A stretch of DNA of 64,000 bases from Candidatus Gottesmanbacteria bacterium RIFCSPHIGHO2_02_FULL_39_11 (GTDB lineage: Bacteria; Patescibacteriota; Microgenomatia; 2-02-FULL-39-11), in assembly GCA_001779195.1 (NCBI GenBank), contig MFJL01000014.1, forward strand, positions 9,522 through 73,521, read 5' to 3'. Below are positions 31,352-64,000 of the stretch, in pieces. The position numbers and the translations under genes are program-made. Each line of letters starts with the position of its first letter. The first letter of the stretch is position 1. Below the pieces are notes generated by a model that was not told the DNA's origin, ran no database searches, and worked only from the letters and a program-made list of their open reading frames with translations.

Positions 31352-31379
31352 AGTATACATCCTTTTGATAAAAAATCAA
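31352..31379 (-). promoter_or_regulatory. Predicted promoter for the T-box leader / argHG operon
   Basis: On the minus strand TTGATT (31374-31379), a 16-bp spacer and TATACT (31352-31357). It overlaps the stop codon of the upstream GT2 gene. Confidence 0.4.
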
Positions 31380-32278
31380 ATTTTGAAAAGTGAAACCAAT
31401 CTTTTAAACTCAATTGCACCAAGGATTAACCCTTTAACCCACCATGGGTATCTCTTCTGATAATGTTTTTTGTAAAATATTTTCATCACATCAAACCGGG
31501 CATTTGTGGCTTTTATCTTTGTCTCACGTGTTACGTTTGATAGGTCTATGGAATGCTTTTTTATCCCACTGCTCACTCCTTTATAATGCAGAATGGATAC
31601 CTGAGGAATATAGATAATTTTGCCTCCTTTTTCTTTTATGCGAAAGCAGAAATCCAAATCCTCCCCATACCAGAAATAGTCTTCATCCAGCCACCCAACT
31701 CTTTCCCCTGCGCTTCTTCTGATTAGAAGACATGCTCCTACTCCGCTGTCAATTTCATGAACTTTGTCTAAGTCTTTATACCCTAAATGATATCCATTTA
31801 ATAAATTACTATTTGGAAATAGTTTGCTAATCCCTAAAAAGTGGCAGAATGCATTCCATGGAGTAGGAAATCCTCTATGAGATGCATCATCCATCTGACC
31901 ATTTAGCAATACTATTTTAGGCGTTACAACAGCAACATCTGAATGACTGTCCAGATAGGAAACTAATGTTTCAATCGTTTTATCACTAATTACCGTATCA
32001 GGATTTAGAAGAAGAACGTAGTCTCCTTTTGATTTTTTTATAAGAATGTTGTTCGCTTTTGCAAATCCTACATTTATATCGCTTTGAAATACTTCTATAT
32101 CCTTAAAAGTTTTTTTAATGTAATCAAAACTTCCATCTGTTGAGGCATTATCCATTACTAAAATTTCGTACGTTAAATTATTAGGAATGCTTTTTTTAAG
32201 CGAGTCAACGCATTCCTTTATAAGGTTTTTAGAATTAAACGCAACTATAATAATAGATAATTTAAGATTTTTTGCCAT
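31376..32278 (-). CDS. Glycosyltransferase family 2 (GT-A)
   Basis: LSIIIVAFNSKN, DNASTDGS and a DxD-type GT2 fold. The start is adjusted to the internal ATG at 32276-32278 (MAKNLKLSII); the track ORF extends to 32368. Confidence 0.75.
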   Translation of the reverse strand: MAKNLKLSIIIVAFNSKNLIKECVDSLKKSIPNNLTYEILVMDNASTDGSFDYIKKTFKDIEVFQSDINVGFAKANNILIKKSKGDYVLLLNPDTVISDKTIETLVSYLDSHSDVAVVTPKIVLLNGQMDDASHRGFPTPWNAFCHFLGISKLFPNSNLLNGYHLGYKDLDKVHEIDSGVGACLLIRRSAGERVGWLDEDYFWYGEDLDFCFRIKEKGGKIIYIPQVSILHYKGVSSGIKKHSIDLSNVTRETKIKATNARFDVMKIFYKKHYQKRYPWWVKGLILGAIEFKRLVSLFKI

Positions 32279-33458
32279 AATATGCCCCTTCATAAATTCG
32301 ATCCAGATGTGAGGCAATTGTTTTCCAATTGAAGTTTTTTTCAACAAATGCCCGTCCTTCATAGGCAAGTCTTTCTGATAATTTGGGATTGGTTAAGACT
32401 TGAATTGTTTTATGAGCAAGTTCCTCAGGTGTCTCACCAATTAATGCATTTTTCCCGTCAACGGCGTTTAATCCTTCAATCCCAATTGATGTTGTGACGA
32501 CAGGAAGTCCGGATGCCATGGATTCAAGTATTTTATACCGGGTACCTCCCGGGCCGTATATGGGGGCAAGCATTACATCGGCGTTTGAGTATGCATCCGT
32601 AATGTTTTTAATATCAGATGAGACTTTGACCCAATCTGATTCATATTTTTTAAGAGACTCGGGAGCTGATCTTCCGACAATCCAGAGATTTGCCTGGGGC
32701 ATTTCCTTTCTTATAAGCGGCCATATTTTCTGCAAAAGTATCTCAACTGCCTCCCGGTTTTGAAGCCACTTAAACTGACCTACAAAAAGAATTGTTTTTT
32801 TCTTTCCGGTATTTTTTTTGCGGTTTATTTTGAAAAATTGGGCATCCACTCCATTGGGAACTAAATCAACGTTAATTCCCGGAACTAAATCCTCCATTAT
32901 TTTTTTATCAGCTTCAGACATAGCAACTACTCTTTTTGCATCTTTCCAGTATTTTTTTTCAAAATATCTGATTTTTAAGACATCAAAAAGCATGAGTATT
33001 TTTACAGGTAAAAATGTTACGGTTTCCGTATAGTGTTTATACACCAGATATTCAATGGTTTGTTCCACGAGAATTGTCGGCGTTGTGGTTTTTGGGATAT
33101 TGGGAAGCACATAAAATGTCTCAGCGTGGATAAGATCAAACCTCTTATTTTCAACAAGCTTGGCAATCTGAGATCTGACACTTCTTCTAAGATACAGACA
33201 TACAACCAAGGGATAAATGCTGATTGCTGACAATACCAGACTTTTTAACGACCACGGTTTCCTTTTTTGAAAAACATAAACACTTTCACAAAATTTCCTC
33301 AGCTCCTCTATATATTTTTTTTCACTATCATCCCGGATAAAAGAAACAAGGGTAATATGATGTTTGTGGGAAAGATTCTTCAGAAGATTGTATGTCCGTA
33401 TCTGGCCTCCGGAATACAACGGATAGGGCAAATAGGGAGTAAGCATCAGTATCTTCAT
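32262..33458 (-). CDS. Glycosyltransferase family 4 (GT-B)
   Basis: 398 aa with the E-x7-E motif ESMASGLPVVTTSIGIEGL. Confidence 0.8.
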   Translation of the reverse strand: MKILMLTPYLPYPLYSGGQIRTYNLLKNLSHKHHITLVSFIRDDSEKKYIEELRKFCESVYVFQKRKPWSLKSLVLSAISIYPLVVCLYLRRSVRSQIAKLVENKRFDLIHAETFYVLPNIPKTTTPTILVEQTIEYLVYKHYTETVTFLPVKILMLFDVLKIRYFEKKYWKDAKRVVAMSEADKKIMEDLVPGINVDLVPNGVDAQFFKINRKKNTGKKKTILFVGQFKWLQNREAVEILLQKIWPLIRKEMPQANLWIVGRSAPESLKKYESDWVKVSSDIKNITDAYSNADVMLAPIYGPGGTRYKILESMASGLPVVTTSIGIEGLNAVDGKNALIGETPEELAHKTIQVLTNPKLSERLAYEGRAFVEKNFNWKTIASHLDRIYEGAYYGKKS

Positions 33459-33459
33459 A

Positions 33460-36400
33460 CTATCTTTGGGGAAGATCTTTATCCGGTACTAATTGAATAA
33501 GAATATAGTTAGGCAACTCCTGAATAATTTTATATCCTTTTGTGCTTTCTTTATTCAGAGCTTCTCTCATGAGCTGCTGGGTCACATCATCATAATTTAG
33601 GGATACATAATAATCAGCTCCCTTTTTAACAAGGCTGTCAATTGGCTCGGTGAGAACAGGCCATCCCCACCGGTGGGTCTGGTATAAAAACGCGGTATCT
33701 CCATTATAGGGAGCAACCACAAGCGCTTTATCCGGAGTGTATTTTTCAACAGCCAAGCCTGCTTCAATAATTTCAGGATGATTGATATTGTAATAGTCTT
33801 TAATAAAATACCATCCGAACATCAGCATAAAAATAAAACATATCAAAACAAAGGGATAGACAAAAACCCTATTAAATATCTTTCCTGCATGATCCAGAAG
33901 AAAAACTACTCCCTTAGCGGCAAAAATACATAGAATAGGCACTATAAATATCTGATAATAATCATGCCTTACATTTCCCGTTGCAATAACAACAAGATAC
34001 AAAAGTGCTCCGAGTCCCCATATATGAAAAACCCATCCTTCCTTCGGTTTTTTAAACAGGAGTCCCAGAGAAACAAAAACAACGCCCCAGTAGCCCAGAA
34101 TAAGTCTTCCAATTCGGTCTGCAAATATCCAGTAAAACCAGGCACCTTTGAACCGAATTCCGTCTCCGTTTAAAAGCCAAGTATATGCCGGGACTCCTTC
34201 AGGGAAATTGGCAACCCATTTTCTCCATAAGAGAAGTGGAATAAGTGTCGCAAAAAGCGCAATTCCGATTGCAAGCAACGTTGAAAAAGAAAGCTTAAGT
34301 CTTCTGATAAATACATATATAACAACAGGATATAAAAAGAGTGAGATGGGCTTAATTAAAGCAGCTCCGGATGCAAAGAGAAGGGCTAAAATGCCCGTTA
34401 ATATTAATTTAAGAATGATCCTTTTTTCTCTTTTTCCCTTACTGAATAAGGCAAGATGTATGGCAAATGTATCAAAGAAATAAATCATTCCGACAGATAA
34501 AGAAGCCAAAAGGGGTTCGGGCAAAATGACACGGCTGAAAAAAATATTGTATGGAATAACCGCAAAAAATATGGCAGTTAAAACCGATTCGCGTCTTCCT
34601 AAGAATCGTCTGGCAATAAGAAAAAGAAATATAATAGAGAGCAGGCTTGCAAATATGGAAGTCAGACGGCCTGAAATTTCAATCGTGTAACCGACAAAAA
34701 TCTTGTCCGTGACAGTTGAAAAAAAGTTGTACAAAGGAAATTCTACCATCCGGTATCCGTTGGGATTGTCCTTTCCGGATGCTACATTTGAAAGGTCATG
34801 GTAGGTAGGATACAAAAGATTAATTCCGTTTCTGACAAAACTGCGCGTTACCGAGGAAGTATCTGCCTGCCTCCATGAATGCCAGTCAGCAATAGGAGAA
34901 GTGATTTTATAAAGCCTGACGAAAAAAGCTAAGCCTAAAATAACCAGAAGAATAAATAAGTCCCCTTTTATAAAATGAAGAATACGGACCCTCGTACCTA
35001 TAAAAAATTCCGAGAGATCAGGAATGGAAGGCTTATCAACAGGACCTTTATGATCTTTTTTTAGAATCATAAGAGCAGAGAGGATAATTCCGCTTATTGC
35101 CCAAAACGTAAATGCGACTTTGGATGAAACAAATACATCAATATAAACTGCATTTGCAAAAAGCCCCATTGAAAGTCCGATAAATCCTGCAAAAAGAGAG
35201 AAAAATATAGGATCCTGCGCCACTTTAAGGTTTCTCCACACCAGATACATAGCTACGATGACGGTTCCGTAAAAAGCTACAAATCCCAAGATTCCCGTCT
35301 CCCCCAAGGTTCTAAGATAATCATTGTCGGTTGATTCCGCATCGGTAAAATCAGTAACATTTTGCTTATTAAGAGTTGCGTATCCGCTCCCCAGCAGGGG
35401 ATCCCGTTTAAATCCCGCAATAGCCATAGGCCAAAGTGCATCCAGACGTATCGCGGTTGAAAGATCATATCGAAACGCGGTGTTGGAATAGGTTCTATTT
35501 GTTGGAGTTAATACAGAACTGTCTGTAGCTGTTGGAATCAAAAGAGGGACATCCTCGTATACATCGCTCGGCCGACGGAGTGAAGGAGGCATATCACTCT
35601 TTGAGGTAATCTGAGATATGATATCGGAATTATTTTCAAGAAAAAGAGCGTTTTGAGTAGGCCTTTGAGCAAGAGGAGACATAAAAAGTGACTTGATATT
35701 TCCCAGTCTTTCATCCAACTTTAACAGTTTAGTAAACCGTTCAGACAGGTCCCCAAAAGACAGCATAAGAACAATAGATAAGGTAATCACCCCTATCCAC
35801 CGTGCTACCGACCATGCAATCCCCTTCCGATATGCCCATATGAAAAACATAAAAGTCAGTCCTCCCAGATAGGCAAGAAAAGAGATTCGAGAGGCAGTAA
35901 GTATTAGAGTCCAAAAAGCTGCTCCTATAATTACAAAAACACCAGCTCGTAAGTACCACCTCTTTACTGCAAAAAATAGACTCCACAAGAGAATAAGCAC
36001 CATCATGATAAAAGCCGCAAGATCATAGTGACCTCCGAATGTTGAGAGAACCCGGGCATGTTCCGTAAGATACAAAACCCAGCCCTTAGAAAACTCCCGA
36101 TTCATAGTAGAAAAAGCCGGCCAATATAGATATTTTTGACCAAACCCATACACTGCTACACACACAACAGTAGCTAGAAGAATTCCGATTAATATTTTCA
36201 CCTGCTTGAGATTTCTAATCGACGAAAAAAGAATAAAAAACAGTGAAAAATACTCAATACGTCTGAGGTAATGAAGAACCATTTTGCCGATATGTAGAGT
36301 CTGTAAAGGAACTGTTTGGATGACAAAAACAGCCGTAATCATGGTCAAAAACCCGAAAGTAAGATAAATTAAAATTGGTTTAAACAGGGGATAGTCAGAT

Positions 36401-36603
36401 AGCTTTGTTTTTCCCCGAATGAGGTAGAAAAGCCAGAGTAAAATCGCAAAACTTACTATAAAATCCTCAATTCTTACTCGGACTATATATCCGGGAAGAG
36501 CATCTAAAAGAGGAAGCTTAGGCATAAGAGGAATAAAAGCGATCAAAAACGCCGAGAAGGCAAATAAGAGATGGCTATCCAGCCACTTCAAAAGCTTTAT
36601 CAT
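33460..36603 (-). CDS. Fusion membrane protein: N-terminal Wzy_C/O-antigen ligase-like domain plus C-terminal ArnT/PMT-like GT-C glycosyltransferase (GT39/GT83-like)
   Basis: 1047 aa with more than 20 predicted TM segments. The N-half carries the O-antigen ligase/polymerase signature ...DNDYLRTLGETGILGFVAFYG. The C-half carries an ArnT/YkcB-like first loop (HSWRQADTSSV) and GT-C topology. Confidence 0.6.
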   Translation of the reverse strand: MIKLLKWLDSHLLFAFSAFLIAFIPLMPKLPLLDALPGYIVRVRIEDFIVSFAILLWLFYLIRGKTKLSDYPLFKPILIYLTFGFLTMITAVFVIQTVPLQTLHIGKMVLHYLRRIEYFSLFFILFSSIRNLKQVKILIGILLATVVCVAVYGFGQKYLYWPAFSTMNREFSKGWVLYLTEHARVLSTFGGHYDLAAFIMMVLILLWSLFFAVKRWYLRAGVFVIIGAAFWTLILTASRISFLAYLGGLTFMFFIWAYRKGIAWSVARWIGVITLSIVLMLSFGDLSERFTKLLKLDERLGNIKSLFMSPLAQRPTQNALFLENNSDIISQITSKSDMPPSLRRPSDVYEDVPLLIPTATDSSVLTPTNRTYSNTAFRYDLSTAIRLDALWPMAIAGFKRDPLLGSGYATLNKQNVTDFTDAESTDNDYLRTLGETGILGFVAFYGTVIVAMYLVWRNLKVAQDPIFFSLFAGFIGLSMGLFANAVYIDVFVSSKVAFTFWAISGIILSALMILKKDHKGPVDKPSIPDLSEFFIGTRVRILHFIKGDLFILLVILGLAFFVRLYKITSPIADWHSWRQADTSSVTRSFVRNGINLLYPTYHDLSNVASGKDNPNGYRMVEFPLYNFFSTVTDKIFVGYTIEISGRLTSIFASLLSIIFLFLIARRFLGRRESVLTAIFFAVIPYNIFFSRVILPEPLLASLSVGMIYFFDTFAIHLALFSKGKREKRIILKLILTGILALLFASGAALIKPISLFLYPVVIYVFIRRLKLSFSTLLAIGIALFATLIPLLLWRKWVANFPEGVPAYTWLLNGDGIRFKGAWFYWIFADRIGRLILGYWGVVFVSLGLLFKKPKEGWVFHIWGLGALLYLVVIATGNVRHDYYQIFIVPILCIFAAKGVVFLLDHAGKIFNRVFVYPFVLICFIFMLMFGWYFIKDYYNINHPEIIEAGLAVEKYTPDKALVVAPYNGDTAFLYQTHRWGWPVLTEPIDSLVKKGADYYVSLNYDDVTQQLMREALNKESTKGYKIIQELPNYILIQLVPDKDLPQR

Positions 36604-37495
36604 AAAGTTCCTTGCGAGATTTATGCTTAGGTATTATACCAAATAAGATGCTTCTAAGCTTAATTCCTGCTTGTAGCAGAAGCTGAACCGTCTTCTGCTG
36701 CCACCGAGGCTTATATTTCCTGTAAAAATAAAGGATAAATTTAAATTCTTCAATGATTCCCGCGTCCTTGCCTATTCTTGATGAACCACCTTTGTCATGT
36801 ATAATTTGAATAGAAGGATCTAATTTTACCTCATATCCGGCCCATTTTATGCGAAAGCACCATTCTACCTCTTCTCCATACATAAAGAGAGATTCATCTA
36901 ACAGTCCAATCTTATCAACAACCTCTTTCCTAGCCATGAAATATGCTCCACTCACCCAGTCTACGTTCTGAGACTTTTTGTAAAATCCTGAATTTTCCAC
37001 ATGGTATGGCTTTAAAAAGTGATTCAGTAAAGGAATATCATCAACAAAGAACATCCAGTTAAAAACAGAAATTAAAGTAGGGAAAAAACCAGCAGACTTT
37101 TGCAATGTTCTATCTTCATACACGAGTTTTCCCCCGACAACTCCTAGAGATTTATCTTTTTTAAAATCTTCAATCGATTTTTCAATTGCCCGGTCATTTA
37201 CTCTGGCATCCGTATTTAAAAGAAGAATATACTCCCCTTTTGACTTTAAAATTGCCTGATTATTTGCCTTTGCAAATCCCACATTTTCTTTATTTTCGAT
37301 AAGCGTAACTCTAGGAAAGTTCTCCTTTAATGTTTTCAGGCTTTCATCAGATGAAGCATTATCAACAACCATTATTTCGCTCTTGTCTGTTAGATTTGAA
37401 ATTCTTAATGAGTTATATAGAGAATCAAGACAGGATTTAAGAAGAGAGGACGTATTGTAGTTGACGATAACAATAGATAAAAGACGCTTGTCCAC
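36575..37495 (-). CDS. Glycosyltransferase family 2 (GT-A)
   Basis: 306 aa with LSIVIVNYNTSSLL and VDNASSDES. Confidence 0.8.
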   Translation of the reverse strand: MDKRLLSIVIVNYNTSSLLKSCLDSLYNSLRISNLTDKSEIMVVDNASSDESLKTLKENFPRVTLIENKENVGFAKANNQAILKSKGEYILLLNTDARVNDRAIEKSIEDFKKDKSLGVVGGKLVYEDRTLQKSAGFFPTLISVFNWMFFVDDIPLLNHFLKPYHVENSGFYKKSQNVDWVSGAYFMARKEVVDKIGLLDESLFMYGEEVEWCFRIKWAGYEVKLDPSIQIIHDKGGSSRIGKDAGIIEEFKFILYFYRKYKPRWQQKTVQLLLQAGIKLRSILFGIIPKHKSRKELYDKAFEVAG

Positions 37496-37514
37496 ATTAT
37501 TTATTCCACTGCAC

Positions 37515-38108
37515 TTATTGAAATAATCTAGCTCTTCCTAATTTATAATTTAGATCTGTTCTTTTTCTCTTTCCGATTTCTTTTGCAGGCACTCCTGCCA
37601 CAACCGTGCATGGTTCTACATTTTTAGTAACTACTGCTCCGGCTCCTACTATTGCCCCTTTTCCGATTTTAACTCCAGGCAGGATAATAACTCGGGGCCC
37701 TATAAATACATAATCTTCAATAGTTACTTCCCCGTATTCAGCAGAAAAATCAATACTGTCTATATCATGCTGCGAGTTATAAACCATAACCTCGGACGCG
37801 ATTGCCACATGATTTCCGATGGTAAGCCCGGCACGTCCGTCTAAAAATACCCTATTCCCAATAATCGTATCCTCGCCTATTTTTATATTACTCGGTTCGT
37901 AGAAATTAGCTCCCACATGGATACGGGAACCGTGTCCAAGTCTAATACCTGCTGCTTTATAAAAAAGAAGACGGATGCTGTGAACGGGAACATGTCCGAC
38001 AAAACGGAGAATCATCAGTTCAAAATCAAGGAGAATGCTGAAAAAACGATTTTGAATTTTTTTAAGAATTTCCGAATTACTCAGTACTCTTCCGTTTTTA
38101 TCTTTCAT
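37515..38108 (-). CDS. Hexapeptide-repeat sugar O-acetyltransferase (WcaF/MAT-like)
   Basis: 197 aa with left-handed beta-helix repeats (IGNHVAIASEV, IGPRVIILPGVKIGKGAIVGAGAVV). Confidence 0.75.
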   Translation of the reverse strand: MKDKNGRVLSNSEILKKIQNRFFSILLDFELMILRFVGHVPVHSIRLLFYKAAGIRLGHGSRIHVGANFYEPSNIKIGEDTIIGNRVFLDGRAGLTIGNHVAIASEVMVYNSQHDIDSIDFSAEYGEVTIEDYVFIGPRVIILPGVKIGKGAIVGAGAVVTKNVEPCTVVAGVPAKEIGKRKRTDLNYKLGRARLFQ

Positions 38109-38127
38109 ACAATCAAAAGTATACCTC

Positions 38128-39288
38128 TTATTTGGGTTGCGTTGCTACTTCAATTAGAGTTTTAAAAGTTTGTTCACCTCCCAAGTCCCAACTAAACTTT
38201 TTAATCTGCTCAAATCCTTTTTGAATTAGATTTTTCCGATATAGAGCATCGGTTAAGACTTTTTTTATCCCTTCTTCAATACTTGTGCTGTCTGTGGGAT
38301 CGATAAAACAGGCCGCATCTCCTGCGATCTCGGGAAGGCTGCTTACATTACTTAGAACTGCCGGACACCCACATGCTAATGATTCAATTACCGGTATTCC
38401 AAATCCTTCGTACAGACTGGGGAGAATAAAGCAGGAAGCTAAATTATATAGAAGTGATAAATCTTCATCTTCTGCAAAATCCGTAAATATCACCTTTTTC
38501 TCTTCCATGAGATATTTCTTATGGGTCAAAATACCTTCATACATCCATCCTTTTTTTCCGACCAGAAGAAGCTGAAAATTATCAAACTGCCCGGAATTAA
38601 TAATTCTCTCAAAAGCATCCAGAAGCTTTACAATATTTTTTCTGGGCTGAATAGTGCCGACAAAAAGAATAAAGTTCTCACCGACACAGAACTTCTTTTT
38701 AACAGCTTCTTTTTCTTTTTTTAAAACTTCTCTTTTCTTATACAGATTATCATCAAACCCGGGGTAAGTAACTACAATACTGTCCGGGTTTACCTGATAA
38801 TATTTTATAATTTCTTCTTTGCTGAACTGACTGATAGTAAATATTTTCGATGCGTTTTTGACGGAATACGAAGTCCAGTTCTCAAGCTGATAGAGATCTT
38901 TTTTATTAAACAGTTCCGGAAAATGAAAAAAGGAGAGATCCATGATGGAAATCACACTCGGCTCACGCAGGAAACGGGGAGCATAATGGGAAGGTGAAAA
39001 AAAAATGTTTGAGGATCTAAAAAGAGTCAGATGAAACGGAAGAGCAAATTGAGTCCACATTTTAGAAGGACCAAAAACTTTATATTTCCACCAAGGAGCA
39101 GAAGTTGGTAAGTCAGAGAGGGGTTTGTCTTTCAAATAAATCTCAAAACTTACGTCTCTATATGAAGTATTTTTTTCTTTTTTTCTTAACGCATACAGGG
39201 AAGTTATGGTATGAAAAGCATATTGACCTATACCCACTCTTTTTTTAGTATTGGCTTCATTTCCGTCAATTCCTATTTTAATCGTCAT
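38128..39288 (-). CDS. Glycosyltransferase family 4 (GT-B)
   Basis: YEGFGIPVIESLACGCPAV. The start is adjusted to the internal ATG (MTIKIGIDG) so the overlap with the upstream gene is 4 nt; the track ORF runs to 39336. Confidence 0.75.
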   Translation of the reverse strand: MTIKIGIDGNEANTKKRVGIGQYAFHTITSLYALRKKEKNTSYRDVSFEIYLKDKPLSDLPTSAPWWKYKVFGPSKMWTQFALPFHLTLFRSSNIFFSPSHYAPRFLREPSVISIMDLSFFHFPELFNKKDLYQLENWTSYSVKNASKIFTISQFSKEEIIKYYQVNPDSIVVTYPGFDDNLYKKREVLKKEKEAVKKKFCVGENFILFVGTIQPRKNIVKLLDAFERIINSGQFDNFQLLLVGKKGWMYEGILTHKKYLMEEKKVIFTDFAEDEDLSLLYNLASCFILPSLYEGFGIPVIESLACGCPAVLSNVSSLPEIAGDAACFIDPTDSTSIEEGIKKVLTDALYRKNLIQKGFEQIKKFSWDLGGEQTFKTLIEVATQPK

Positions 39289-40400: not shown

Positions 40401-41191
40401 GGTAGTATTGATACTTGAAAAATTTTCCTGTAGACCGGCTCTTCATTTCTTCTTCTTAAAAAAGGGATAAGGAAGAGCATCACTTTCCGATAAAATATAG
40501 CCTTCAGAGGATTTTTAGACATCCACCCTTGCATCAAAACCTCTCGGATCTTAAGACTCTCATTTCCGATTATATTGATTTCTACTTTTTTGTGTGTCAC
40601 AAGGGAAGCATTTTTTATTTCCTTTAGAATTTCCTCAAGAGAGGGTAGCCCGAGTCCGATCTGCTCTTGTAAAAAATGATAATGCTTATGATGAATTCTT
40701 TCATATTCATAATCTAACCTCTCATCCTGCTCCTGGGCCTTTTTACCTGCAGGAACACCGATAAAAAACATCTTTTTGGCAACTCGCATCATTTCTTCAA
40801 CTGCTTTTGACCGGTTACCGGTACTTATATGCTCAAGCGTATCTGTTGAAACAACTACATCATATGAATTATCAGGAAAAGGAATTCCGATTGCAGAACC
40901 TTTTACCTGTTTTAAATTCGGATGATAGGGAGGATAAAATTCTATGTCCAAACCCGTAACCGGACGCCTGATATAAGGGGCGATACCCAACCCTCCGGAT
41001 CCTACATCTAAAATTGAAGGATTTCCCGGAAGTTTTTTTATAGAATCAACGATGGGAAGATACCGTAAAGCGACCTCGGGATGCCAGCGGTAAAATATAA
41101 AGAAGCCCGTTATATAAGCCAGTAAATCAGATTCTATCATAAATATATATAAAGCCCACCCCGGGATAGTTTTTGATACCTGTATTTTCAA
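40397..41191 (-). CDS. Class I SAM-dependent methyltransferase with an N-terminal membrane segment
   Basis: 264 aa with the SAM motif ILDVGSGGLGIAP and an N-terminal hydrophobic helix. Confidence 0.7.
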   Translation of the reverse strand: MKIQVSKTIPGWALYIFMIESDLLAYITGFFIFYRWHPEVALRYLPIVDSIKKLPGNPSILDVGSGGLGIAPYIRRPVTGLDIEFYPPYHPNLKQVKGSAIGIPFPDNSYDVVVSTDTLEHISTGNRSKAVEEMMRVAKKMFFIGVPAGKKAQEQDERLDYEYERIHHKHYHFLQEQIGLGLPSLEEILKEIKNASLVTHKKVEINIIGNESLKIREVLMQGWMSKNPLKAIFYRKVMLFLIPFLRRRNEEPVYRKIFQVSILP

Positions 41192-44904: not shown

Positions 44905-44922
44905 ACTTGAAGATTATCACAT

Positions 44923-53417: not shown

Positions 53418-53430
53418 ATGTAATTTTTAT

Positions 53431-55537: not shown

Positions 55538-55546
55538 AATTTGCCT

Positions 55547-57109: not shown

Positions 57110-57212
57110 ATCTATTTAGCTTTTGTTTTATATATTTTTTGATATAGTCTGCTAGATTGCATTAGCTTAAATACTATATTATAACGTCTTGACCAAGTTC
57201 AAAAGTATTATT

Positions 57213-57815
57213 ATGAAGTCAAAAACGGTAAAACTTACGTCCAAAAAGAGCTTTCTCAGCTTCTATCTCGATAACTTTACTATCAGCTTATCACATCTTG
57301 AGACAAAAAATATAGAAAAAATAATTGATCAGTTGGTACTTTTGAAAAAAAGAAAAGGGAGATTATTTTTGATAGGTATTGGGGGAAGCGCTGCCAACTG
57401 CAGTCACGCGGTTAATGACTTCAGAAAAATCGCAAAAATTGAAACCTATGCGGCCTCTGATAACATTGCGGAGCTTACTGCCCGGATAAACGATGAGGGA
57501 TGGGACGGAATATTTTCTTCTTATCTTGAGGGGAGTCATCTTTCGAAAAATGATATGGTTTTTATTCTGTCAGTAAGCGGTGGAGACCTTATAAAAAATA
57601 AAAGCATAAATATAGTTCATGCTATTTTATATGCCAAAAAAATCGGATCGACCATCCTAGCAATTGTCGGTGCGGGAGGAGGATTCACTAAAGAGTCTGC
57701 AGACTACGTAATCGAAATTAAGACTGAAAGAAATGAACTGATAATTCCCTTTGCAGAAAGCATGCAAAGTGTCATTTGGCATGCGATTGTGAATCATCCT
57801 AAACTTACAAGTTAA
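57213..57815 (+). CDS. gmhA: SIS-domain sedoheptulose-7-phosphate isomerase (GmhA-like)
   Basis: GRLFLIGIGGSAANCSHAVNDFRKI. The start is placed at the ATG at 57213 (MKSKTVKL); the track ORF begins upstream at a TTG. Confidence 0.7.
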   Translation: MKSKTVKLTSKKSFLSFYLDNFTISLSHLETKNIEKIIDQLVLLKKRKGRLFLIGIGGSAANCSHAVNDFRKIAKIETYAASDNIAELTARINDEGWDGIFSSYLEGSHLSKNDMVFILSVSGGDLIKNKSINIVHAILYAKKIGSTILAIVGAGGGFTKESADYVIEIKTERNELIIPFAESMQSVIWHAIVNHPKLTS

Positions 57816-58806
57816 TTGCCGAGTCTTTAATATAATGACTTAAACAGCTGTGGTAGTACTCCTTTGTGGCTTTAAGTCCTTCCCTTAATGATACTTCAGG
57901 ATTCCAGTTAAATTTATTTCTGAATTTCCTGTCATCAATATATACATTTCCGACTTCAATCTTTTTCCTGTCTTTCGGCCACTGCATTTTTTTTATCTTT
58001 CCGCCTACTATTCTCTCGATTGATTTGGCTATTGTATAAACAGTTGGAAAATCTGATGAGCTTACAAAATAAACCTCCCCCTTGCCCCTTTTTCCAATTG
58101 TCCTTAGGAGAGCATCAACTACATCTTCAATATATAAGACAGACCGATGCTGATTACCAGATCCGTAGAGAGGGATCGGTTTACCCGACAAAGCAAGACC
58201 GATAAAGTAGTTGATAAAACCAAACTCACTTGATGAAATGACAGCCCGGGGCCCGTATACATTTGGAAGTCGTATGGAAGTTGTATTTATTCCATATACC
58301 CGTGAATATATTTCCATATACTTCTCTCCCAGGCTTTTATGAGCTGAATATATATCGCATGGAAACTCGCAGTGCAGTTCGGTAATGGGATTAATTTTCA
58401 TTTTTCCCACCTGGGTAGATGTTGCAGTATATATGACCTGTATTTTGGGGTTATACTTCCGAACGGATTCCAACAGCACAAGTGTCCCCCGGGCATTTAT
58501 GTCTAAATCCATAAAGGGGTCTTCCATAGAACCTGGATGAGAAGTATGAGCCGCACAATGAAAAATAATATCAGTATTCGTTAGAATTTTCGCAAGCACT
58601 TTTTCGTTTCTAATATCGTGATTTAAAAAAATAACTTCTTTTTGAATGGGTTTTATATTGTATAAATTCGCTCCCGAATGAAAGTCGCAGTTGTCTAAAA
58701 TAGTGACATTAGCACCTTTTTTAAAACAAGATAAGGCTAAATTGCTTCCAATAAATCCAATACCTCCTGTAATAAGTATTTTTTTACTTTGAAACATTTT
58801 TTCCAT
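57805..58806 (-). CDS. NAD-dependent nucleotide-sugar epimerase/dehydratase (extended SDR)
   Basis: 333 aa with the Rossmann motif ILITGGIGFIGSNLA and the catalytic YSAHK. Confidence 0.8.
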   Translation of the reverse strand: MEKMFQSKKILITGGIGFIGSNLALSCFKKGANVTILDNCDFHSGANLYNIKPIQKEVIFLNHDIRNEKVLAKILTNTDIIFHCAAHTSHPGSMEDPFMDLDINARGTLVLLESVRKYNPKIQVIYTATSTQVGKMKINPITELHCEFPCDIYSAHKSLGEKYMEIYSRVYGINTTSIRLPNVYGPRAVISSSEFGFINYFIGLALSGKPIPLYGSGNQHRSVLYIEDVVDALLRTIGKRGKGEVYFVSSSDFPTVYTIAKSIERIVGGKIKKMQWPKDRKKIEVGNVYIDDRKFRNKFNWNPEVSLREGLKATKEYYHSCLSHYIKDSAINL

Positions 58807-58828
58807 TTATAAAGCTAGGGCAGATATT

Positions 58829-60415
58829 TTACCTGATAATAGACTCATGATTCTTTTTATCCGATTTGAACCTAATAATCAAATAAATAAGAAGCATCAT
58901 GCATAAAACATACATGGTGAGATAAAAAATAAGAAAATAACCTTTGGTAAACCACGGTTTATACTGACTGGCTTCCACTAAAAAACGGCTTACCGGAAGA
59001 ATATCATAATAGGAAGAAAGAAGAGTATATAATCCGTAAATGCTGAAAATAACCGTTAGTACGGCAATCAATTTTATAAACCCTTCTTTCACCTTTTTAA
59101 ATTTTTCGGGAATCAAAGAGTTCCATCCCTTAAGAAATAAATAGGTAAGAATCGTAACCACGGGAAAATAATACCTTCCCTGTATTCCCAATTGAAACCC
59201 AGACTGATACCAGCTTAACCAGTCGAAAACAGAAATTCCGGCATAAAATATCCATGCGATCCCGATTAAAAAAATTATGCTTTGTATGTGCCTGTTTACT
59301 TGCGACCGGTTCCTTATAAGCTTAAATAAAGATAGTCCCAGTCCCACAATTGCAAGTATAAGTATGCGGTTAATTATCCGGTGAATACCTCTGGGATAGG
59401 TTACACCCAGCCATTTGTATATTCCGAAATACCATGGCAATACTTCCGTATAAGTATGAGAGAGAGTATATTCCCGGGTATATTTTAAAAGGCTTTGCAA
59501 ATTTAAATGGTTAATTATCGTTTGAATTAAAACAAACGAGCCAAAACCTATTCTATAGAAAATATATAAAAGAACGACACCAAATACCCCAAACAAACTG
59601 ATATATAACCATTTTTTTTCTGTCTTTAAATCTCTTATTGCAATAGCCAAAATCAAAATGACGGTTATCGGAATAGTTATAATAAATTGAGGTTTTGAAT
59701 AGATGCATAATAAAAGAGTGATAAATAAATTTGCCGTGTTTCCGACTGTAAAAGAATTTTTTATGATATGGACGATCCAATATATAAATATCGTAAACAG
59801 AAGATTACCCAAGGCGTCACTGTTTACTCCCACATTGGCAAAAATAAGCATAGGTTGAAATCCTACCAGTATGGGAAATATGAATTGCTCCAAATGTCTT
59901 TTTGGAAATAATAACCTTCCAAGTTTATAGCTTACTGCAATAAACATCATAAAAAGTAAAAGAGACCATATACGTACTGTAAGAACCCGAGTAAAAATAT
60001 CGGAAGTATAAAACAAACGGTATATTAAACTTCCCGGAATATAATATAAAATCGGATATCGGGATGCTTCAATGCGGACAAAGGTTGATTTATCTTTATG
60101 GGTGTTTACAGCAGAAATACTTGCCTCATGATAACCAATCAGGCTATCGGAATAAGGAATACGGTATTCCGGATGAAAAGTAAAACGGTTATTGCCGGAA
60201 TTGTCCCGGTGCGTTCCTAAGAGTACTTCTGAAGTGTATATTTCTTTTGACAAATCTAACTCTTCGCCCTCTGAGTTTCTTCCTTTTTCTGCCACAAATG
60301 CCACTTGGCCAAAGTGAGACTGTTCATCGGGAGTATGAAATATAGGAACAAGACACACCCAAATAAATGCATTTAAGAAAGCCGTAAAAAAAAATATGGT
60401 ACCAGCATTTCTCAT
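58829..60415 (-). CDS. Polytopic membrane protein, DUF2142-like (putative GT-C glycosyltransferase)
   Basis: PIFHTPDEQSHF first loop and more than 10 TM segments. The start is adjusted to MRNAGTIFFF (ATG 60413-60415), which gives an ATGA overlap with the upstream GT2; the track ORF runs to 60514. Confidence 0.45.
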   Translation of the reverse strand: MRNAGTIFFFTAFLNAFIWVCLVPIFHTPDEQSHFGQVAFVAEKGRNSEGEELDLSKEIYTSEVLLGTHRDNSGNNRFTFHPEYRIPYSDSLIGYHEASISAVNTHKDKSTFVRIEASRYPILYYIPGSLIYRLFYTSDIFTRVLTVRIWSLLLFMMFIAVSYKLGRLLFPKRHLEQFIFPILVGFQPMLIFANVGVNSDALGNLLFTIFIYWIVHIIKNSFTVGNTANLFITLLLCIYSKPQFIITIPITVILILAIAIRDLKTEKKWLYISLFGVFGVVLLYIFYRIGFGSFVLIQTIINHLNLQSLLKYTREYTLSHTYTEVLPWYFGIYKWLGVTYPRGIHRIINRILILAIVGLGLSLFKLIRNRSQVNRHIQSIIFLIGIAWIFYAGISVFDWLSWYQSGFQLGIQGRYYFPVVTILTYLFLKGWNSLIPEKFKKVKEGFIKLIAVLTVIFSIYGLYTLLSSYYDILPVSRFLVEASQYKPWFTKGYFLIFYLTMYVLCMMLLIYLIIRFKSDKKNHESIIR

Positions 60416-61374
60416 CTGATTTGCTTGATTCGTATACGGAAATGAAGTCCGTTTGCGATATAACCCAATCCGAACACAATTTTTGATAGTCTTTCTGCAA
60501 CCCAGTTCTGCCATCTTGGATAGGTAACAAAAGTAACCCCAGAGTACACAATATGAATAAACACATATCCTGCTGCTAAAAAAACTGACATAATTTGACT
60601 TAGATGGGCTTTCCTCCTATTTTGCATATCAAACCACGCGCATCCGCCTGCATAAGACCTTTGAAGAATATAGGAAAGAGTTTGCTTTTTATCAGAGACT
60701 TCATGAAAAACTGATAATTTAGGTGAGTAGAAAATTTTTGCTGTATTATTTGTATACTCGAAGAGTCGGTAGAACAAATCCGTTTCTTCATGAAGATATA
60801 AATTTTTTCCTTTCATTCCCAGCCGCTCATCAAAACCTCCTATCTCCATTAAGGTATTCTTTTTAATTATCATGTTTGAACCGGTTAACGACTCACCTTT
60901 TTTTAAATATCTTTCTTGAGAACCCAGAATTTTTTTCGACATTACTGCGTATTTCGCCTTAAACCAATCCGGCTTTTTTCCACCAGCAAAAAAAGGTTTT
61001 TCCGGACCTCCCAACGCTATTAAGGAATTTCGGTATTTGCTAATTATATACATTGCATTTGATAACCAGTTTTTAGGAATCCTTACATCATCGTCCAGAT
61101 AAGCCACATACTTTCCATGAGCATATTGGTATCCTAAGTTTCGTGAAGCAGATAATCCTTTTCGGTCATCTACAATATACTGAAACAAATTTGAAGAAAA
61201 CTCATGTTGAAATGATTTGACAACTATGGGTGTTTGATCGGTTGATCTATCGTCAATCACAACAACCTCATACCCATCTGACTTACTGGTTTGTTTCATG
61301 ATGGATTTAAGACACTCTCCAAGTAAATTTGCCCGGTTGTATGTACAGATAACAATGGAAATTTTGGGGGTCAT
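60412..61374 (-). CDS. Glycosyltransferase family 2 (GT-A)
   Basis: 320 aa with ISIVICTYNRANLLGECL and VVIDDRSTDQT. Confidence 0.8.
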   Translation of the reverse strand: MTPKISIVICTYNRANLLGECLKSIMKQTSKSDGYEVVVIDDRSTDQTPIVVKSFQHEFSSNLFQYIVDDRKGLSASRNLGYQYAHGKYVAYLDDDVRIPKNWLSNAMYIISKYRNSLIALGGPEKPFFAGGKKPDWFKAKYAVMSKKILGSQERYLKKGESLTGSNMIIKKNTLMEIGGFDERLGMKGKNLYLHEETDLFYRLFEYTNNTAKIFYSPKLSVFHEVSDKKQTLSYILQRSYAGGCAWFDMQNRRKAHLSQIMSVFLAAGYVFIHIVYSGVTFVTYPRWQNWVAERLSKIVFGLGYIANGLHFRIRIKQIR

Positions 61375-61394
61375 ATTATTTCTAATCTGTTCTT

Positions 61395-62438
61395 TTATCT
61401 ATAAAGCAATCTCTTTATTCTCCCTTCTAATAAATGAGGCAAACTGTTTTCATTTTTAAGAATAATTGAGCTTTTTTGACCGGAATTATTGTCTTCTTTC
61501 CATTTTTTAATATACTCGGAAAATAAAGGGAAAAACTGATACTTTTCCAAAATAAGTTCTCGTGCTTTACATATTGTTTTCTGATTACGCTTCCACAGAT
61601 TACTATGAATAATCCGATTAATGGTATCAGGACATTTGGGATCTTCGATATCTATTTTAATATAGGAGGACTCAGGAAAATAATTTGAAATATTAGTGCA
61701 GCCATAATATATGGGCATAGTATAGGACAGATAAGCATCTGCAAGCTTTTCACTCCAGTAGTCAGGTCCGGCAAAGTTCTCAACAACCAGACTATATCGA
61801 TAAGGAGAGAGTGCTTCCCATTTATCCTGTGCGACTGATGAATACCCTTCGGCATATAAAGCTTTTTTCAACTCTTCTTTCTCCTGTTGTGTCTTAACAT
61901 GCAGTTTTCTTTCATAATAATTTAAAGTTGCAGTAATATCGCATGCGGACTTGTGTGAAATATTTTTTAAAAAATTTAATCTTTTTTTATGTCCCTCAAA
62001 AATATTTTTTTTGCTTGTAACCCAACAAAGTAATTTATTTTTTTTCGGCATCGGTTCTTTTCTCAAAAAATCATAAGACCGGTTTATATGCCAAGGCAGT
62101 CCTGTCTGGGTATGAATATACCTTTCCCCAACCAAGTGAGAATCAGTTGTGTACACACGGGAATAAATGCCGCAAGGTTTATAGGTATGCCTGAAAAATT
62201 CGTTCGGGGGCTCCTGATGAATTAACCATAAGTTTTTTTCATTGCAATAAACTCCCGCATCCCGGGTTATTGAGTTTAAAACAAGTACATAATCACAATT
62301 ATCTCCCTCGTCAAATGTAAATTGGATTCCACCCCATACTCCCTTTCCCTGTGGTGTTTGGTTAAGCATGTCAGGCCAATCCCAGCTTTTAATTATTCTT
62401 ATGACTATCTCCTTATTTTTCTTTATATCTGTATCCAT
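61395..62438 (-). CDS. GT10 alpha-1,3/4-fucosyltransferase (FutA/FucT-like)
   Basis: YRYSLVVENFAGPDYWSEKLADAYLSYTMPIYYG closely parallels the Helicobacter FucT motif YKFNLCFENSQGYGYVTEKIIDAYFSHTIPIYWG. Confidence 0.75.
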   Translation of the reverse strand: MDTDIKKNKEIVIRIIKSWDWPDMLNQTPQGKGVWGGIQFTFDEGDNCDYVLVLNSITRDAGVYCNEKNLWLIHQEPPNEFFRHTYKPCGIYSRVYTTDSHLVGERYIHTQTGLPWHINRSYDFLRKEPMPKKNKLLCWVTSKKNIFEGHKKRLNFLKNISHKSACDITATLNYYERKLHVKTQQEKEELKKALYAEGYSSVAQDKWEALSPYRYSLVVENFAGPDYWSEKLADAYLSYTMPIYYGCTNISNYFPESSYIKIDIEDPKCPDTINRIIHSNLWKRNQKTICKARELILEKYQFFPLFSEYIKKWKEDNNSGQKSSIILKNENSLPHLLEGRIKRLLYR

Positions 62439-63298
62439 GATGATGGAAATAAATCTTTAGTTGAAACTTTTAGTTTATAAAACCAATTTCTCGGAGCAAT
62501 CACTATAGATGATGCGTTTGGATTAAGCCACCCTACCCACCAACTAAAGGTACTATTTGTAAGAATATGATGCTTGCACAGACTTCCCAGAATCAGATCC
62601 TCTTCAACCCGATCCGGATAATTTATGTCAACATACGTAGCCGGATAAGACAAAATAATATTATTTTTTACCCATTCAATATCATCTGAGAAAAGAAAAA
62701 AATGAGGGTTCTTAACTCTCTTTCGAATAACTGAAACAGCTTGGTGTATATAGTCTGCCCCTATAAAACCGTGTCTTCGGCTGATTATGTGATTGGTAAC
62801 ATAATCTCCCCGTCTAATATTTATTGAAATGGAATTCACATCTGAAATATACTCTCGAAGTTCTTTACTCTCAGAAGATAACTTCTCGTTTAACCGAAGT
62901 TCCCGTCTAAGAATATTTGCAATACTTAAAAAGTATTTTTCACTCTGAAAGTAACCGATAAGATATGAATTATCGCGAATCCTCTCAAAGCTCCGATCGT
63001 AGTGAAAACTTTTTTCATAATATATATTCGAAAATAACGGAAACAGTATATGGTGAATATACGGGTGGTAATCCTGGGGAAAAAATCTCGAAAACTTTAA
63101 ATATTTTTTAAGATCACTCCCCTTTGATATTTCAGCCTGGATATTGAATTTATCCAGAAGAAATATCCGGTATGTCTTTCTCTGAAGTTCCGTAATATCA
63201 AGTTTTAACGAGGTCCCGAATTTTATCGACAGCATCCTTCCCGCCGCATACTGAAACAGTTGATTTCCCAGTCCACCGGTTATTCGGATAATAATCAT
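62423..63298 (-). CDS. GT11 alpha-1,2-fucosyltransferase (FutC/WbsJ-like)
   Basis: GT11 motifs ITGGLGNQLFQYAAG, INIRRGDY, FLFSDDIEW and NSTFSWWVGWL. Confidence 0.8.
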   Translation of the reverse strand: MIIIRITGGLGNQLFQYAAGRMLSIKFGTSLKLDITELQRKTYRIFLLDKFNIQAEISKGSDLKKYLKFSRFFPQDYHPYIHHILFPLFSNIYYEKSFHYDRSFERIRDNSYLIGYFQSEKYFLSIANILRRELRLNEKLSSESKELREYISDVNSISINIRRGDYVTNHIISRRHGFIGADYIHQAVSVIRKRVKNPHFFLFSDDIEWVKNNIILSYPATYVDINYPDRVEEDLILGSLCKHHILTNSTFSWWVGWLNPNASSIVIAPRNWFYKLKVSTKDLFPSSWIQI

Positions 63299-64000
63299 AT
63301 AGAATTATTTATGTGATTCCTATAGCTTGTGAGTCTTTGTGACACCTCTCTGTCAAAAATAGATTCATCATCTATGTTTTCATATATTTTCTTCCCAAAA
63401 ATTACGTTTTTAACCTTTCCCAGAGAAAGAAAATACTGATTATTCCACAGTTTTGAATCTGTTTTTTCTTCCATTTCTCTTTCTTTTCTGAAATTTATAA
63501 GCGTCGTGAGAGGCTTTGATTCAAGTTTCCCTATTATATCGGCTAATCCGTATATAGGATCCGAATTATGAAAAAAATTTTTCCTTGCCCAAATATTTAA
63601 GACAGAGTAATTTCCTGATTTAGATGCTGAGGCACTGATGAGTTTAAATTCTGTGTACGTTTTTATTGTATCTATATATTTGTACCAGTCCGCCCAAAGC
63701 TCAGAGGGCAATCTATATGGCTGAAGCATATAAATGGATTTTTTTGCAAGTGCTGCTTCAATAAGTGTTGTACTAAATGAAGAAACTATAATATCACTTC
63801 CCAAAATCCACTCACGAACTGTATATGTTTTCAGAACATGAATTCTGTCACTTATATTGGACTGCATCATGTGAAGCTTCTCCTTAAAATAGGATAGACT
63901 AAATGTAGGACGGGGACGAAGAATTACTTCGACATCATCTGCACCTTCTCTGACAATCCGGTCCAGCCACCTGATAACCTCTTCAAAACTTTTCTCACAA
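63295..64000 (-). CDS. TagB/TagF-like polyol-phosphate (glycerophospho)transferase or capsule phosphotransferase (C-terminal part; gene continues beyond the window end)
   Basis: The reading frame stays open upstream of the annotated Met to position 64000. The RPRP...SDIIVSSFSTTLIEAALAKKSIYMLQPY pattern resembles the TagF catalytic region. Confidence 0.35.
   Translation of the reverse strand, partial: CEKSFEEVIRWLDRIVREGADDVEVILRPRPTFSLSYFKEKLHMMQSNISDRIHVLKTYTVREWILGSDIIVSSFSTTLIEAALAKKSIYMLQPYRLPSELWADWYKYIDTIKTYTEFKLISASASKSGNYSVLNIWARKNFFHNSDPIYGLADIIGKLESKPLTTLINFRKEREMEEKTDSKLWNNQYFLSLGKVKNVIFGKKIYENIDDESIFDREVSQRLTSYRNHINNSI

Follow-up and report, generated by a model that had tools for sequence, protein, structure and literature searches.

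A glycan locus in Gottesmanbacteria

Candidatus Gottesmanbacteria is a tiny, uncultured groundwater bacterium of the candidate phyla radiation (CPR; Microgenomates). We analyzed a stretch of 64,000 nucleotides from Candidatus Gottesmanbacteria bacterium RIFCSPHIGHO2_02_FULL_39_11 (GCA_001779195.1, contig MFJL01000014.1, positions 9,522 to 73,521 of the forward strand), hereafter termed the window, and found it to harbor a large locus of glycan-related genes that is rich in polytopic glycosyltransferases (GTs) of the GT-C type. The window corresponds to the reverse complement of most of ENA contig ERZ4903137:k141_3197357 (72,354 bp), and three of its proteins were 100% identical to NCBI proteins of Candidatus Gottesmanbacteria (locus tags A3D77_02365, A3D77_02435 and A3D77_02470). 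Genes are designated here by their lowest window coordinate. The layout of the open reading frames (ORFs) agreed with the coordinates of an initial annotation of this DNA, which had described nearly every gene from 31.4 kb onward as glycan-related. Indeed, all 29 of the 29 consecutive ORFs from 31376 to 64000 were found to be glycan-related, such that chance is not an issue for their clustering. The locus also continues beyond the window, as had been stated, by at least 10 kb. By contrast, its start was found not at 31376 but at 22420, where genes for a DUF4012 protein, a phosphoglycosyltransferase (PGT), a ManC-like enzyme and two more GT4 enzymes were detected, for a total of over 40 kb. The PGT and manC genes had been noticed before and were placed in an arg operon just upstream of the locus; both genes were recovered, but as part of the glycan locus itself. 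The argG and argH genes (28446-31050) lie within this locus, and their glycan flanks are contiguous in Gottesmanbacteria GCA_016186795.1 (GT2, GT4, GT4, ManC, PGT, DUF4012 and RecO, with no argGH between). Thus, argGH is an insertion inside the locus.

The genes of the locus sit in several co-directional blocks, with strand switches at 44923, 47287 and 57189, which are on the forward strand. The divergent GT-C genes 43390 (reverse) and 44923 (forward) are separated by a gap of only 18 bp (window 44904-44923), so that at least one promoter must lie inside a neighboring coding region. GC content across the window is 33-41%, and no feature was found by Rfam and tRNA scans of the window.

Nine polytopic GT-C proteins

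The initial annotation had listed at least nine polytopic GT-C-like proteins. The count of nine was correct, and Pfam search, profiles and folds together placed these proteins in GT-C rather than among transporters. Hydropathy analysis revealed 7-10 hydrophobic segments in the eight single-domain membrane proteins and 19 in the fusion protein 33460, and the AlphaFold models were helical bundles. Three of the nine (33460, 43390 and 55547) passed a Pfam threshold directly. No Pfam match was detected even at E = 10 for 44923, 47287, 49529, 50935 and 58829; the GT-C call for these five was therefore not trivial, yet right.

Relatives and profile comparisons linked these proteins to one another and to known GT-C families. 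By hhalign, 41127 matched the C-terminal domain of 33460 (93.8%), and its ortholog in GCA_016186795.1 carries PF13231, as do many homologs of the paralogous pair 49529 and 50935. Similarly, 47287 matched the DUF2142 family (95.5%), and the DUF2142 protein 58829, in which a PDEQ motif is invariant, matched the 50935 family (87%). The 561-aa ORF of 58829 that reaches 60514 is probably over-extended, with M34 as the likely start and an NCBI protein of 528 aa. For DUF2079, which has 6996 relatives in the representative library and is represented here by 43390, hhalign of shallow alignments gave no link to the other GT-C families and a deep alignment was needed. The deep DUF2079 profile (A5) matched the 50935-family profile (A1) at 89.6% (E 2e-6) over the same core, including the K-E motif, and with D41 invariant; it still gave no link to DUF2142.

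The catalytic loop of GT-C enzymes sits directly after the first transmembrane helix (TM1) (PMC11127046, PMC9574508). Acidic residues were found directly after TM1 in each GT-C family of the locus (D33/D34 in A1, D30/E31 in A2, D573/D581 in the 33460 alignment A3 and D41 in A5), and the acidic motifs LDE, IDEE, D..SRD and MDQE are kept in orthologs. Positive charges at the N-termini suggest that these loops face outward.

The link to solved GT-C enzymes came only by way of structure prediction and fold search, as sequence search of the PDB returned nothing, even at E = 10, for the single GT-C proteins or for profiles A1, A2, A3 and A5. Structural similarity was detected by Foldseek for 33460 (probability 1.0), and the AlphaFold model of 50935 (pLDDT 91.5, pTM 0.92) matched AglB, STT3, ArnT, DPY19, Pmt4, AftA and EmbB; the other seven proteins are linked by profiles only. 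Taken together, the Pfam matches, paralogy, Pfam matches of orthologs, profile-profile links and structure revealed that all nine polytopic proteins are GT-C, with ten domains counted since 33460 has two. The adjacent DPM1/GtrB-like GT2 indirectly suggests that these proteins may use lipid-phosphate-linked donors. Models for protein O-mannosyltransferases (PF02366 PMT and NF058602) were not passed and only PMT_2 matches were found, with 55547 at 39.8 bits for NF058602 compared to a cut-off of 800. No Pfam or NCBIfam match to GT53, GT85, GT87 or GT89 was detected, and 41127 reached only 17 bits with the mannosyltransferase model NF052499.

A WaaL-like/ArnT-like fusion protein

The architecture of 33460 is the most conserved and most distinctive component of the locus. 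More than 120 database clusters, of 834 matches, share at least 50% identity with 33460 over its full length, and the clusters among these matches that are named by source are Gottesmanbacteria, Microgenomates or Patescibacteria. Mean column identity in the alignment of 36 sequences (A3) is 63%. When the AlphaFold model (pLDDT 76) was compared by Foldseek, the C-terminal half matched ArnT (5f15, E 8e-7, TM-score 0.59 on the target), ALG12 (0.63), STT3, AglB and PglB, and the N-terminal half matched WaaL (7tpg_B, TM-score 0.65 on the target, probability 1.0).

The LTASR motif of 33460, with its invariant R239, aligns with LTQTR (R215) of Escherichia coli WaaL, whose catalytic Arg/Arg/His set we take to be R215, R288 and H338. 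R386 and D426 of 33460 correspond to R288 and H338 of WaaL in motif spacing alone; in pairwise alignment this region did no better than shuffles. An invariant AESTDNDYLRxLGETGxLG motif (residues 421-441) in the Wzy_C domain thus places, by spacing, Asp426 where WaaL has His338 (VHLHNEIIEAGSLKGLMG). As the alignment lacks statistical support, the His-to-Asp exchange is a lead only. The Wzy_C domain may act as either a ligase or a polymerase.

A candidate polyprenyl-phosphate sugar synthase

The 48795 gene encodes a GT2 protein of 235 aa with no transmembrane (TM) helix. Its best PDB match was the Pyrococcus dolichol-phosphate mannose (Dol-P-Man) synthase 5mlz (E 5e-16), over residues 1-214 and hence the whole catalytic domain, followed by ArnC and then GtrB (sll0501). 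The best NCBIfam matches were AglJ (E 2e-30), PgfS, ArnC, PpgS and the haloarchaeal Dol-P-hexose transferase, all below the equivalog cut-offs. The signature of a polyprenyl-phosphate sugar synthase is thus present (5mlz, AglJ and PpgS), as expected from the earlier description of 48795 as DPM1-like, and these matches support a placement of the protein, predicted from its sequence, closer to Dol-P-Man, Und-P-Ara4FN and Und-P-Glc synthases than to other GT2 classes.

Conservation of the locus

Species-representative genomes were scanned with a narrow alignment (A4), and five loci were found, of which four are syntenic (L008-L011). The fifth (L012, Bryobacteraceae) is a distant TPR-type relative with no synteny. 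Gene-by-gene amino acid identity was 40-57% in L008-L010 and lower in L011, a more distant Patescibacteria metagenome-assembled genome of looser gene order. The order is also kept, at 40-57% identity, in GCA_016186795.1 (1.12-Mb contig), for five other assemblies in all; in this genome the locus is about 45 kb, from a cytidylyltransferase to DUF4012 and RecO. In L009 the order is GT11, GT10, GT2, DUF2142, 55547-like, Wzx, GT2, GT4, 50935-like, 49529-like, synthase-like GT2, two unassigned ORFs, 44923-like, DUF2079, GT2 and 41127-like. L009 (CAZJBV010000002.1) and L010 (CAZYQZ010000006.1) are titled 'uncultured Gammaproteobacteria' despite their Gottesmanbacteria-type locus, and these labels are probably wrong.

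The number of GT-C genes was found to differ, with about 6 in GCA_016186795.1, at least 9 in the locus described here, and eight identified in the 21 kb of L009, a stretch cut off within the 41127-like gene. In L010 and L011, tandem 47287-like duplicates and further GT-C-like ORFs were detected, and three synthase-like GT2 copies are interleaved with GT-C genes in L011. Relatives also have additional genes within the locus, for which the hhalign comparison to GT-C profiles was negative: the L009 ORFs of 507 and 486 aa (13464-16444) and a polytopic DUF6798 protein in L014 (1-1667). A GT-C count that varies from 6 to at least 9 on a kept order is the pattern expected of glycan diversification on a fixed scaffold. 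With its order kept across Gottesmanbacteria-type genomes, the locus is lineage-typical and not a strain-specific island; the term "island" used in the initial annotation was thus not upheld.

Other genes of the locus

The features of the locus are listed in Table 1.

Table 1. Features of the glycan locus, by position in the window.
Position	Strand	Feature	Evidence
22420-24348	-	DUF4012 membrane-anchored protein, 642 aa, one N-terminal TM; terminal gene of the locus	Pfam DUF4012 E 3e-21
24365-25024	-	Small monotopic initiating PGT (Bac_transf), one TM	PF02397 E 5e-61
25049-26131	-	ManC-like NDP-sugar pyrophosphorylase	NTP_transferase and ManC_GMP beta-helix domain
26167-27303	-	GT4	Glycos_transf_1 E 2e-21
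27313-28449	-	GT4	Glycos_transf_1 E 3e-31
31376-32368	-	GT2, true start probably later	Pfam
32262-33458	-	GT4	Pfam
33460-36603	-	Fusion, 1047 aa: N-terminal WaaL/Wzy_C-like (~1-520) and C-terminal ArnT/PMT_2-like GT-C (~545-1047)	Wzy_C 56.4 bits (cut-off 31.7); PMT_2 24 bits, sub-threshold
36575-37495	-	GT2	Pfam
37515-38108	-	WcaF-like hexapeptide O-acetyltransferase	Pfam; NCBIfam WcaF-family subfamily E 4e-27
38128-39336	-	GT4	Pfam
39285-40400	-	GT4	Pfam
40397-41191	-	S-adenosylmethionine (SAM) methyltransferase	Methyltransf_11 (Pfam)
41127-42530	-	GT-C, ArnT/PMT_2-like, conserved WLDEA motif after TM1	PMT_2 21.7 bits, sub-threshold; TIGR03663 E 3e-9
42527-43372	-	GT2, conserved neighbor of DUF2079 and 41127	Pfam E 6e-32; adjacency kept in L009 and L014
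43390-44904	-	GT-C, DUF2079 family	PF09852 E 9e-54
44923-46485	+	GT-C, paralog of 55547	BLASTP E 1e-43, hhalign 100% to 55547; IDEE motif conserved
46482-47183	-	SAM methyltransferase	Methyltransf_11 (Pfam)
47287-48732	+	GT-C, distant paralog of 55547 and 44923	BLASTP E 5e-10, hhalign 99% to 55547
48795-49502	-	Soluble GT2, DPM1/AglJ/GtrB-like candidate polyprenyl-phosphate sugar synthase	PDB and NCBIfam matches
49529-50929	-	GT-C, paralog of 50935, invariant QDDF motif after TM1	Mutual phmmer E 1e-28
50935-52383	-	GT-C, paralog of 49529, invariant QDDF motif after TM1	Mutual phmmer E 1e-28
52380-53417	-	GT4	Pfam
53431-54252	-	GT2	Pfam
54242-55537	-	Wzx-type (MOP superfamily) flippase, about 10 TM; sole flippase in the locus	Polysacc_synt E 4e-27
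55547-57109	-	GT-C, PMT_2 family	PF13231 43.2 bits, cut-off 26.1
57189-57815	+	SIS-domain sugar-phosphate isomerase-like protein	Pfam; NCBIfam GmhA only 51 bits, cut-offs 209-320
57805-58806	-	Short-chain dehydrogenase/reductase (SDR), NDP-sugar dehydratase/epimerase	Pfam; dTDP-glucose 4,6-dehydratase 154 bits, cut-off 365
58829-60415	-	GT-C, DUF2142 family, 528 aa	Homologs carry PF09913, often with PF13231
60412-61374	-	GT2	Pfam
61395-62438	-	GT10-like	Pfam 34.6 bits, cut-off 23.9
62423-63298	-	GT11	Pfam E 3e-35
63295-64000	-	C-terminal part of a 438-aa TIGR04396/BFO_1060-like transferase	TIGR04396 and BFO_1060 family matches

The soluble enzymes agreed in large part with what had been read from the DNA. 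From 31376 onward, the roughly ten GT2/GT4 enzymes that had been reported were found to be six GT2 and four GT4, and the two SAM methyltransferases, the O-acetyltransferase and the Wzx flippase were likewise recovered. Some finer assignments did not hold. A firm assignment of 57189 as GmhA was rejected, its score being far below the cut-offs. The "SDR epimerase" 57805 is an SDR, but its best NCBIfam score was to an NDP-hexose 4,6-dehydratase and was well below cut-off. A TagF-like phosphotransferase had been proposed at 63295; however, the full 438-aa protein had no match to Glyphos_transf (PF04464) even at E = 10. Its matches were instead to TIGR04396 (E 1e-22) and to the BFO_1060 family (E 4e-20), neither of which reached the cut-off, and the TagF assignment was rejected. 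As to the fucosyl-capping enzymes, the GT10 and GT11 families were confirmed; fucosylation is predicted from this family membership only, with no Gmd or Fcl of the GDP-fucose pathway found in the window.

The DUF4012 protein is encoded next to the PGT both here and in GCA_016186795.1. It gave no NCBIfam match and may be a co-polymerase or anchoring factor. Past the window end, the source contig and a sister contig encode the rest of the 438-aa protein, an FkbM methyltransferase, a transketolase-like protein, a PseF-like cytidylyltransferase, an aldehyde dehydrogenase, a KdsC/KDN-9-P-phosphatase-like HAD protein, an SDR, a NeuB-like synthase (305 bits, cut-off 400) and another GT2. These genes would form an ulosonic or nonulosonic-acid-type branch. 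The set is an odd one, in that the NeuB-like, KdsC/KDN-9-P-phosphatase-like and PseF-like proteins are joined with transketolase-like, aldehyde dehydrogenase, SDR and FkbM methyltransferase genes (L003 1-7956, L002 1-10004).

The starts given by the longest-ORF call are probably over-extended at 58829-60514, 31376-32368, 40397-41191 and 46482-47183. The methyltransferases 40397 and 46482 are called as 247 and 221 aa, respectively, on the source contig, and in 31376 the GT2 domain starts only at residue 38.

Proposed assembly pathway and alternatives

Every gene class required by a two-stage pathway was found in the locus, including both the initiating PGT and the flippase of the Wzx/Wzy-dependent pathway. 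We propose, with confidence that is about evenly balanced, that this is a conserved two-stage locus for a cell-surface glycoconjugate, in which cytoplasmic lipid-linked assembly is followed by flipping, ligation and extracytoplasmic elaboration by GT-C enzymes. The proposal builds on the family and fold assignments, gene order and lineage conservation revealed above; the donors, the order of steps and the acceptor are what we infer. In the first stage, the small PGT (24365), as judged from its family, would prime polyprenyl phosphate at the cytoplasmic face, soluble GT2, GT4, GT10 and GT11 enzymes would lengthen the primer into an oligosaccharide, and the methyltransferases and acetyltransferase would modify it, with sugars supplied by the ManC-like, SIS and SDR enzymes and by the ulosonic-acid branch past the window. 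In the second stage, the Wzx-type 54242 would export the lipid-linked glycan, the WaaL-like domain of 33460 would transfer or polymerize it onto an acceptor, and eight ArnT/PMT-type GT-C domains would add sugars from polyprenyl-monophosphate donors made by 48795 and possibly other GT2 enzymes. No lipopolysaccharide genes are in view and peptidoglycan genes are present; the likeliest acceptor would be a polymer associated with the wall, or else an S-layer protein or pilin. Such a model joins Wzx/Wzy logic with the logic of three-component glycosylation systems (PMC11127046, PMC9574508).

Several points weigh against this proposal. A GtrA-, SMR- or MATE-type flippase for polyprenyl-phosphate monosaccharides was not found in the tightly packed locus, so that either the single Wzx-type 54242 would serve both substrates or another flippase would be encoded elsewhere, as is the case for the Lactococcus CflA flippase, which is encoded outside its locus (PMC9574508). 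Neither a Wzz-type co-polymerase (no Wzz/PCP Pfam match) nor an LCP ligase was detected in the window. A dedicated flippase for polyprenyl-phosphate sugars, a Wzz-type regulator and an LCP ligase may all lie elsewhere in the genome. Sequence comparison of the WaaL-like domain of 33460 with E. coli WaaL, including hhalign against the single WaaL sequence, yielded no significant alignment, and with an invariant Asp placed by motif spacing at the position of WaaL His338 the chemistry of this domain may differ. The sugars proposed (mannose, fucose, heptose and ulosonic acid) are likewise putative.

Of the alternatives, a lipoglycan of the lipomannan/lipoarabinomannan (LM/LAM) type appears improbable. 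Here the GT4 enzymes would build a cytoplasmic glycolipid anchor and, after flipping, the GT-C enzymes would polymerize or branch the glycan from polyprenyl-phosphate sugars, as do PimE, MptA, MptB and EmbC, with the PGT and Wzx left to a separate or capping unit. Six GT4 genes, a ManC-like enzyme that could provide GDP-mannose, a soluble synthase-like protein (48795) which we take to resemble the catalytic domain of mycobacterial Ppm1, and structural matches that include AftA, AftB, AftD, EmbB and PimE are consistent with such a product, and the number of GT-C enzymes suits polymer construction better than side-chain decoration. The mycobacterial structural matches, however, rank below ALG12, PMT, STT3 and ArnT, no Pfam match to the GT87, Arabinose_trans or AftA families was found, genes of the decaprenyl-phosphate-arabinose pathway (UbiA-type DPPR synthase, DprE1/2) were absent from the window and fetched flanks, and no phosphatidylinositol-related gene is in view. 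That a single Wzx-type flippase is present, and that a PGT occurs alongside a polyprenyl-phosphate synthase-like GT2, could also be accounted for by a lactococcal-type route, in which a polyprenyl-monophosphate sugar made by 48795 primes elongation by GT2/GT4 enzymes, Wzx exports the product, and GT-C enzymes transfer or polymerize it en bloc onto a second polymer started by the PGT. A route of this kind is documented for WpsA/B, WpsG (Wzx family) and WpsI/WpsJ (GT-C) of Lactococcus lactis (PMC9574508). We regard it as unlikely in the present case: eight GT-C domains far exceed the needs of en bloc transfer, no GacJ/WpsB-like small activator was identified, and no rhamnan module (RmlABCD, ABC transporter) is in view.

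The locus might instead cluster independent systems, for example a PMT-like O-mannosylation of secreted, S-layer or pilin proteins by some of the GT-C enzymes and an unrelated Wzx/Wzy-type exopolysaccharide. The PMT_2 matches, the weak match to the bacterial Pmt model NF058602 and the presence of several transcription units on both strands would suit this view, as would the BFO_1060-like transferase and ulosonic-acid branch, which presumably recall the Tannerella general O-glycosylation system. Yet the bacterial Pmt match is of 40 bits compared to a cut-off of 800, and in relatives the entire gene order is retained as one block, which argues for one functional unit; we thus assign this arrangement a low probability. 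Hardly credible is the view that the locus is a common O-antigen or capsule island gained by horizontal transfer, its polytopic proteins being transporters or Wzy polymerases. At 33-36%, GC content in the locus is slightly below the 37-41% of the 20 kb upstream, and five polytopic proteins are without Pfam match, as such an origin might predict. The fold and profile evidence, by contrast, indicates GT-C, with MFS transporters appearing only as low-probability Foldseek noise, and synteny is lineage-wide. Both the transporter reading and that of a horizontally transferred strain island were rejected as contradicted by this evidence.

Comparison with known systems

The initial annotation had likened the locus to LAM and arabinogalactan assembly, and this comparison proved apt, as is one to three-component extracytoplasmic glycosylation. 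It had also suggested that no described pathway was matched. Targeted full-text search of the literature (Gottesmanbacteria/CPR/Patescibacteria glycosylation, GT-C and DUF2079) indeed gave no description of the locus. Its components belong to known superfamilies and its assembly logic has precedents.

Similar to the three- and four-component systems (GtrA/GtrB/Gtr*, CsdA/CsdB/CflA and GacI/J/K/L), the locus combines a GT2 synthase-like protein with polytopic GT-C proteins that have an acidic loop after TM1 (PMC11127046, PMC9574508); synthase and GT-C genes are adjacent, and the GT-C sequences diverge strongly among themselves. Those systems, however, have one GT-C each, compared to eight or nine here, and their GT-C is an accessory or prophage module rather than embedded in the main assembly locus. 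The present locus is also without a GtrA-, SMR- or MATE-type flippase gene, and 48795 is without the C-terminal TM helices of GtrB. With mycobacterial LM/LAM and arabinogalactan assembly (Ppm1, PimE, MptA-C, EmbA-C and AftA-D) the locus shares many GT-C enzymes, here predicted to be fed by polyprenyl-phosphate sugars, after cytoplasmic GT4 steps, a synthase-like protein without TM helices and a large extracytoplasmic investment. It differs in the absence of Pfam GT87, GT53, GT85 and GT89 and of a decaprenyl-phosphate-arabinose pathway, in its PGT, Wzx and WaaL-like module, and in its setting in another phylum and a genome of about 1.1 Mb.

The rhamnose-rich cell wall polysaccharides of lactococci and streptococci (cwps and polysaccharide pellicle, PSP) resemble the locus in their monoderm-type setting, Wzx-family flippase and conserved scaffold with a variable region (PMC9574508, PMC10821137), as well as in having GT-C enzymes that polymerize or transfer lipid-linked oligosaccharides (WpsI, WpsJ) next to GT-C side-chain decoration. 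Unlike these, the locus lacks a rhamnan module and an ABC transporter, has a larger number of GT-C enzymes and carries the WaaL-like/ArnT-like fusion. Compared to WaaL/PglL-type proteins (Wzy_C; PDB 7tpg), the N-terminal domain of 33460 is similar in that it passes the Wzy_C threshold, its model superposes on WaaL and LTASR corresponds to LTQTR. By contrast, this domain is joined in 33460 to an entire GT-C domain of the ArnT-like kind, and no lipid A-core pathway is in view.

What is new is the density and diversity of GT-C proteins in one conserved locus of a CPR genome of about 1 Mb, the exceptional density being provisional, together with five GT-C families not recognized in these proteins by present Pfam models and the conserved WaaL-like/ArnT-like fusion. 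A bolder reading, which is speculative and in our estimate rather doubtful, is that in the ultra-small Gottesmanbacteria a major glycopolymer of the envelope is assembled for the most part beyond the membrane, by use of at least eight polyprenyl-phosphate-sugar-dependent GT-C enzymes, as an independently evolved counterpart of LAM and arabinogalactan. Its assembly would be organized around 33460 as a bifunctional enzyme not described before, WaaL-like for en bloc transfer and ArnT-like for glycosylation from lipid-phosphate sugars, with Asp in place of the ligase His.

CPR bacteria, or Patescibacteria, account for much of bacterial diversity and have minimal genomes, and a host-attached life is assumed for many of them; to our knowledge, their cell-surface chemistry is essentially unknown. 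If the bolder reading is correct, the variable GT-C complement would set strain-specific surface glycans, which could matter for host attachment or phage evasion in episymbiosis. The locus would occupy about 4% of a 1.1-Mb genome (assuming 45-50 kb compared to the 1,118,283-bp contig of the relative), suggesting that the surface glycan is a central trait of the lineage. The soluble DPM1-like synthase, the GT-C families missed by Pfam and the fusion could broaden the catalog of GT-C enzymes, and parts of the locus could serve as markers or targets for lectin- or antibody-based enrichment of uncultured cells.

Neighboring genes

The first 20 kb of the window is a peptidoglycan/division (dcw) cluster (413-17955) that directly adjoins the glycan locus. 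This complete-looking cluster encodes FtsW, MraY, a FemAB-family protein, a DegT aminotransferase, three Mur ligases, GlmS, a GlmU-like protein, MurA, MurB and PBP2. With the peptidoglycan cluster and the glycan locus filling it, the whole window is thus devoted to envelope biogenesis. The FemAB and DegT proteins may point to a modification of the stem peptide or of a sugar.

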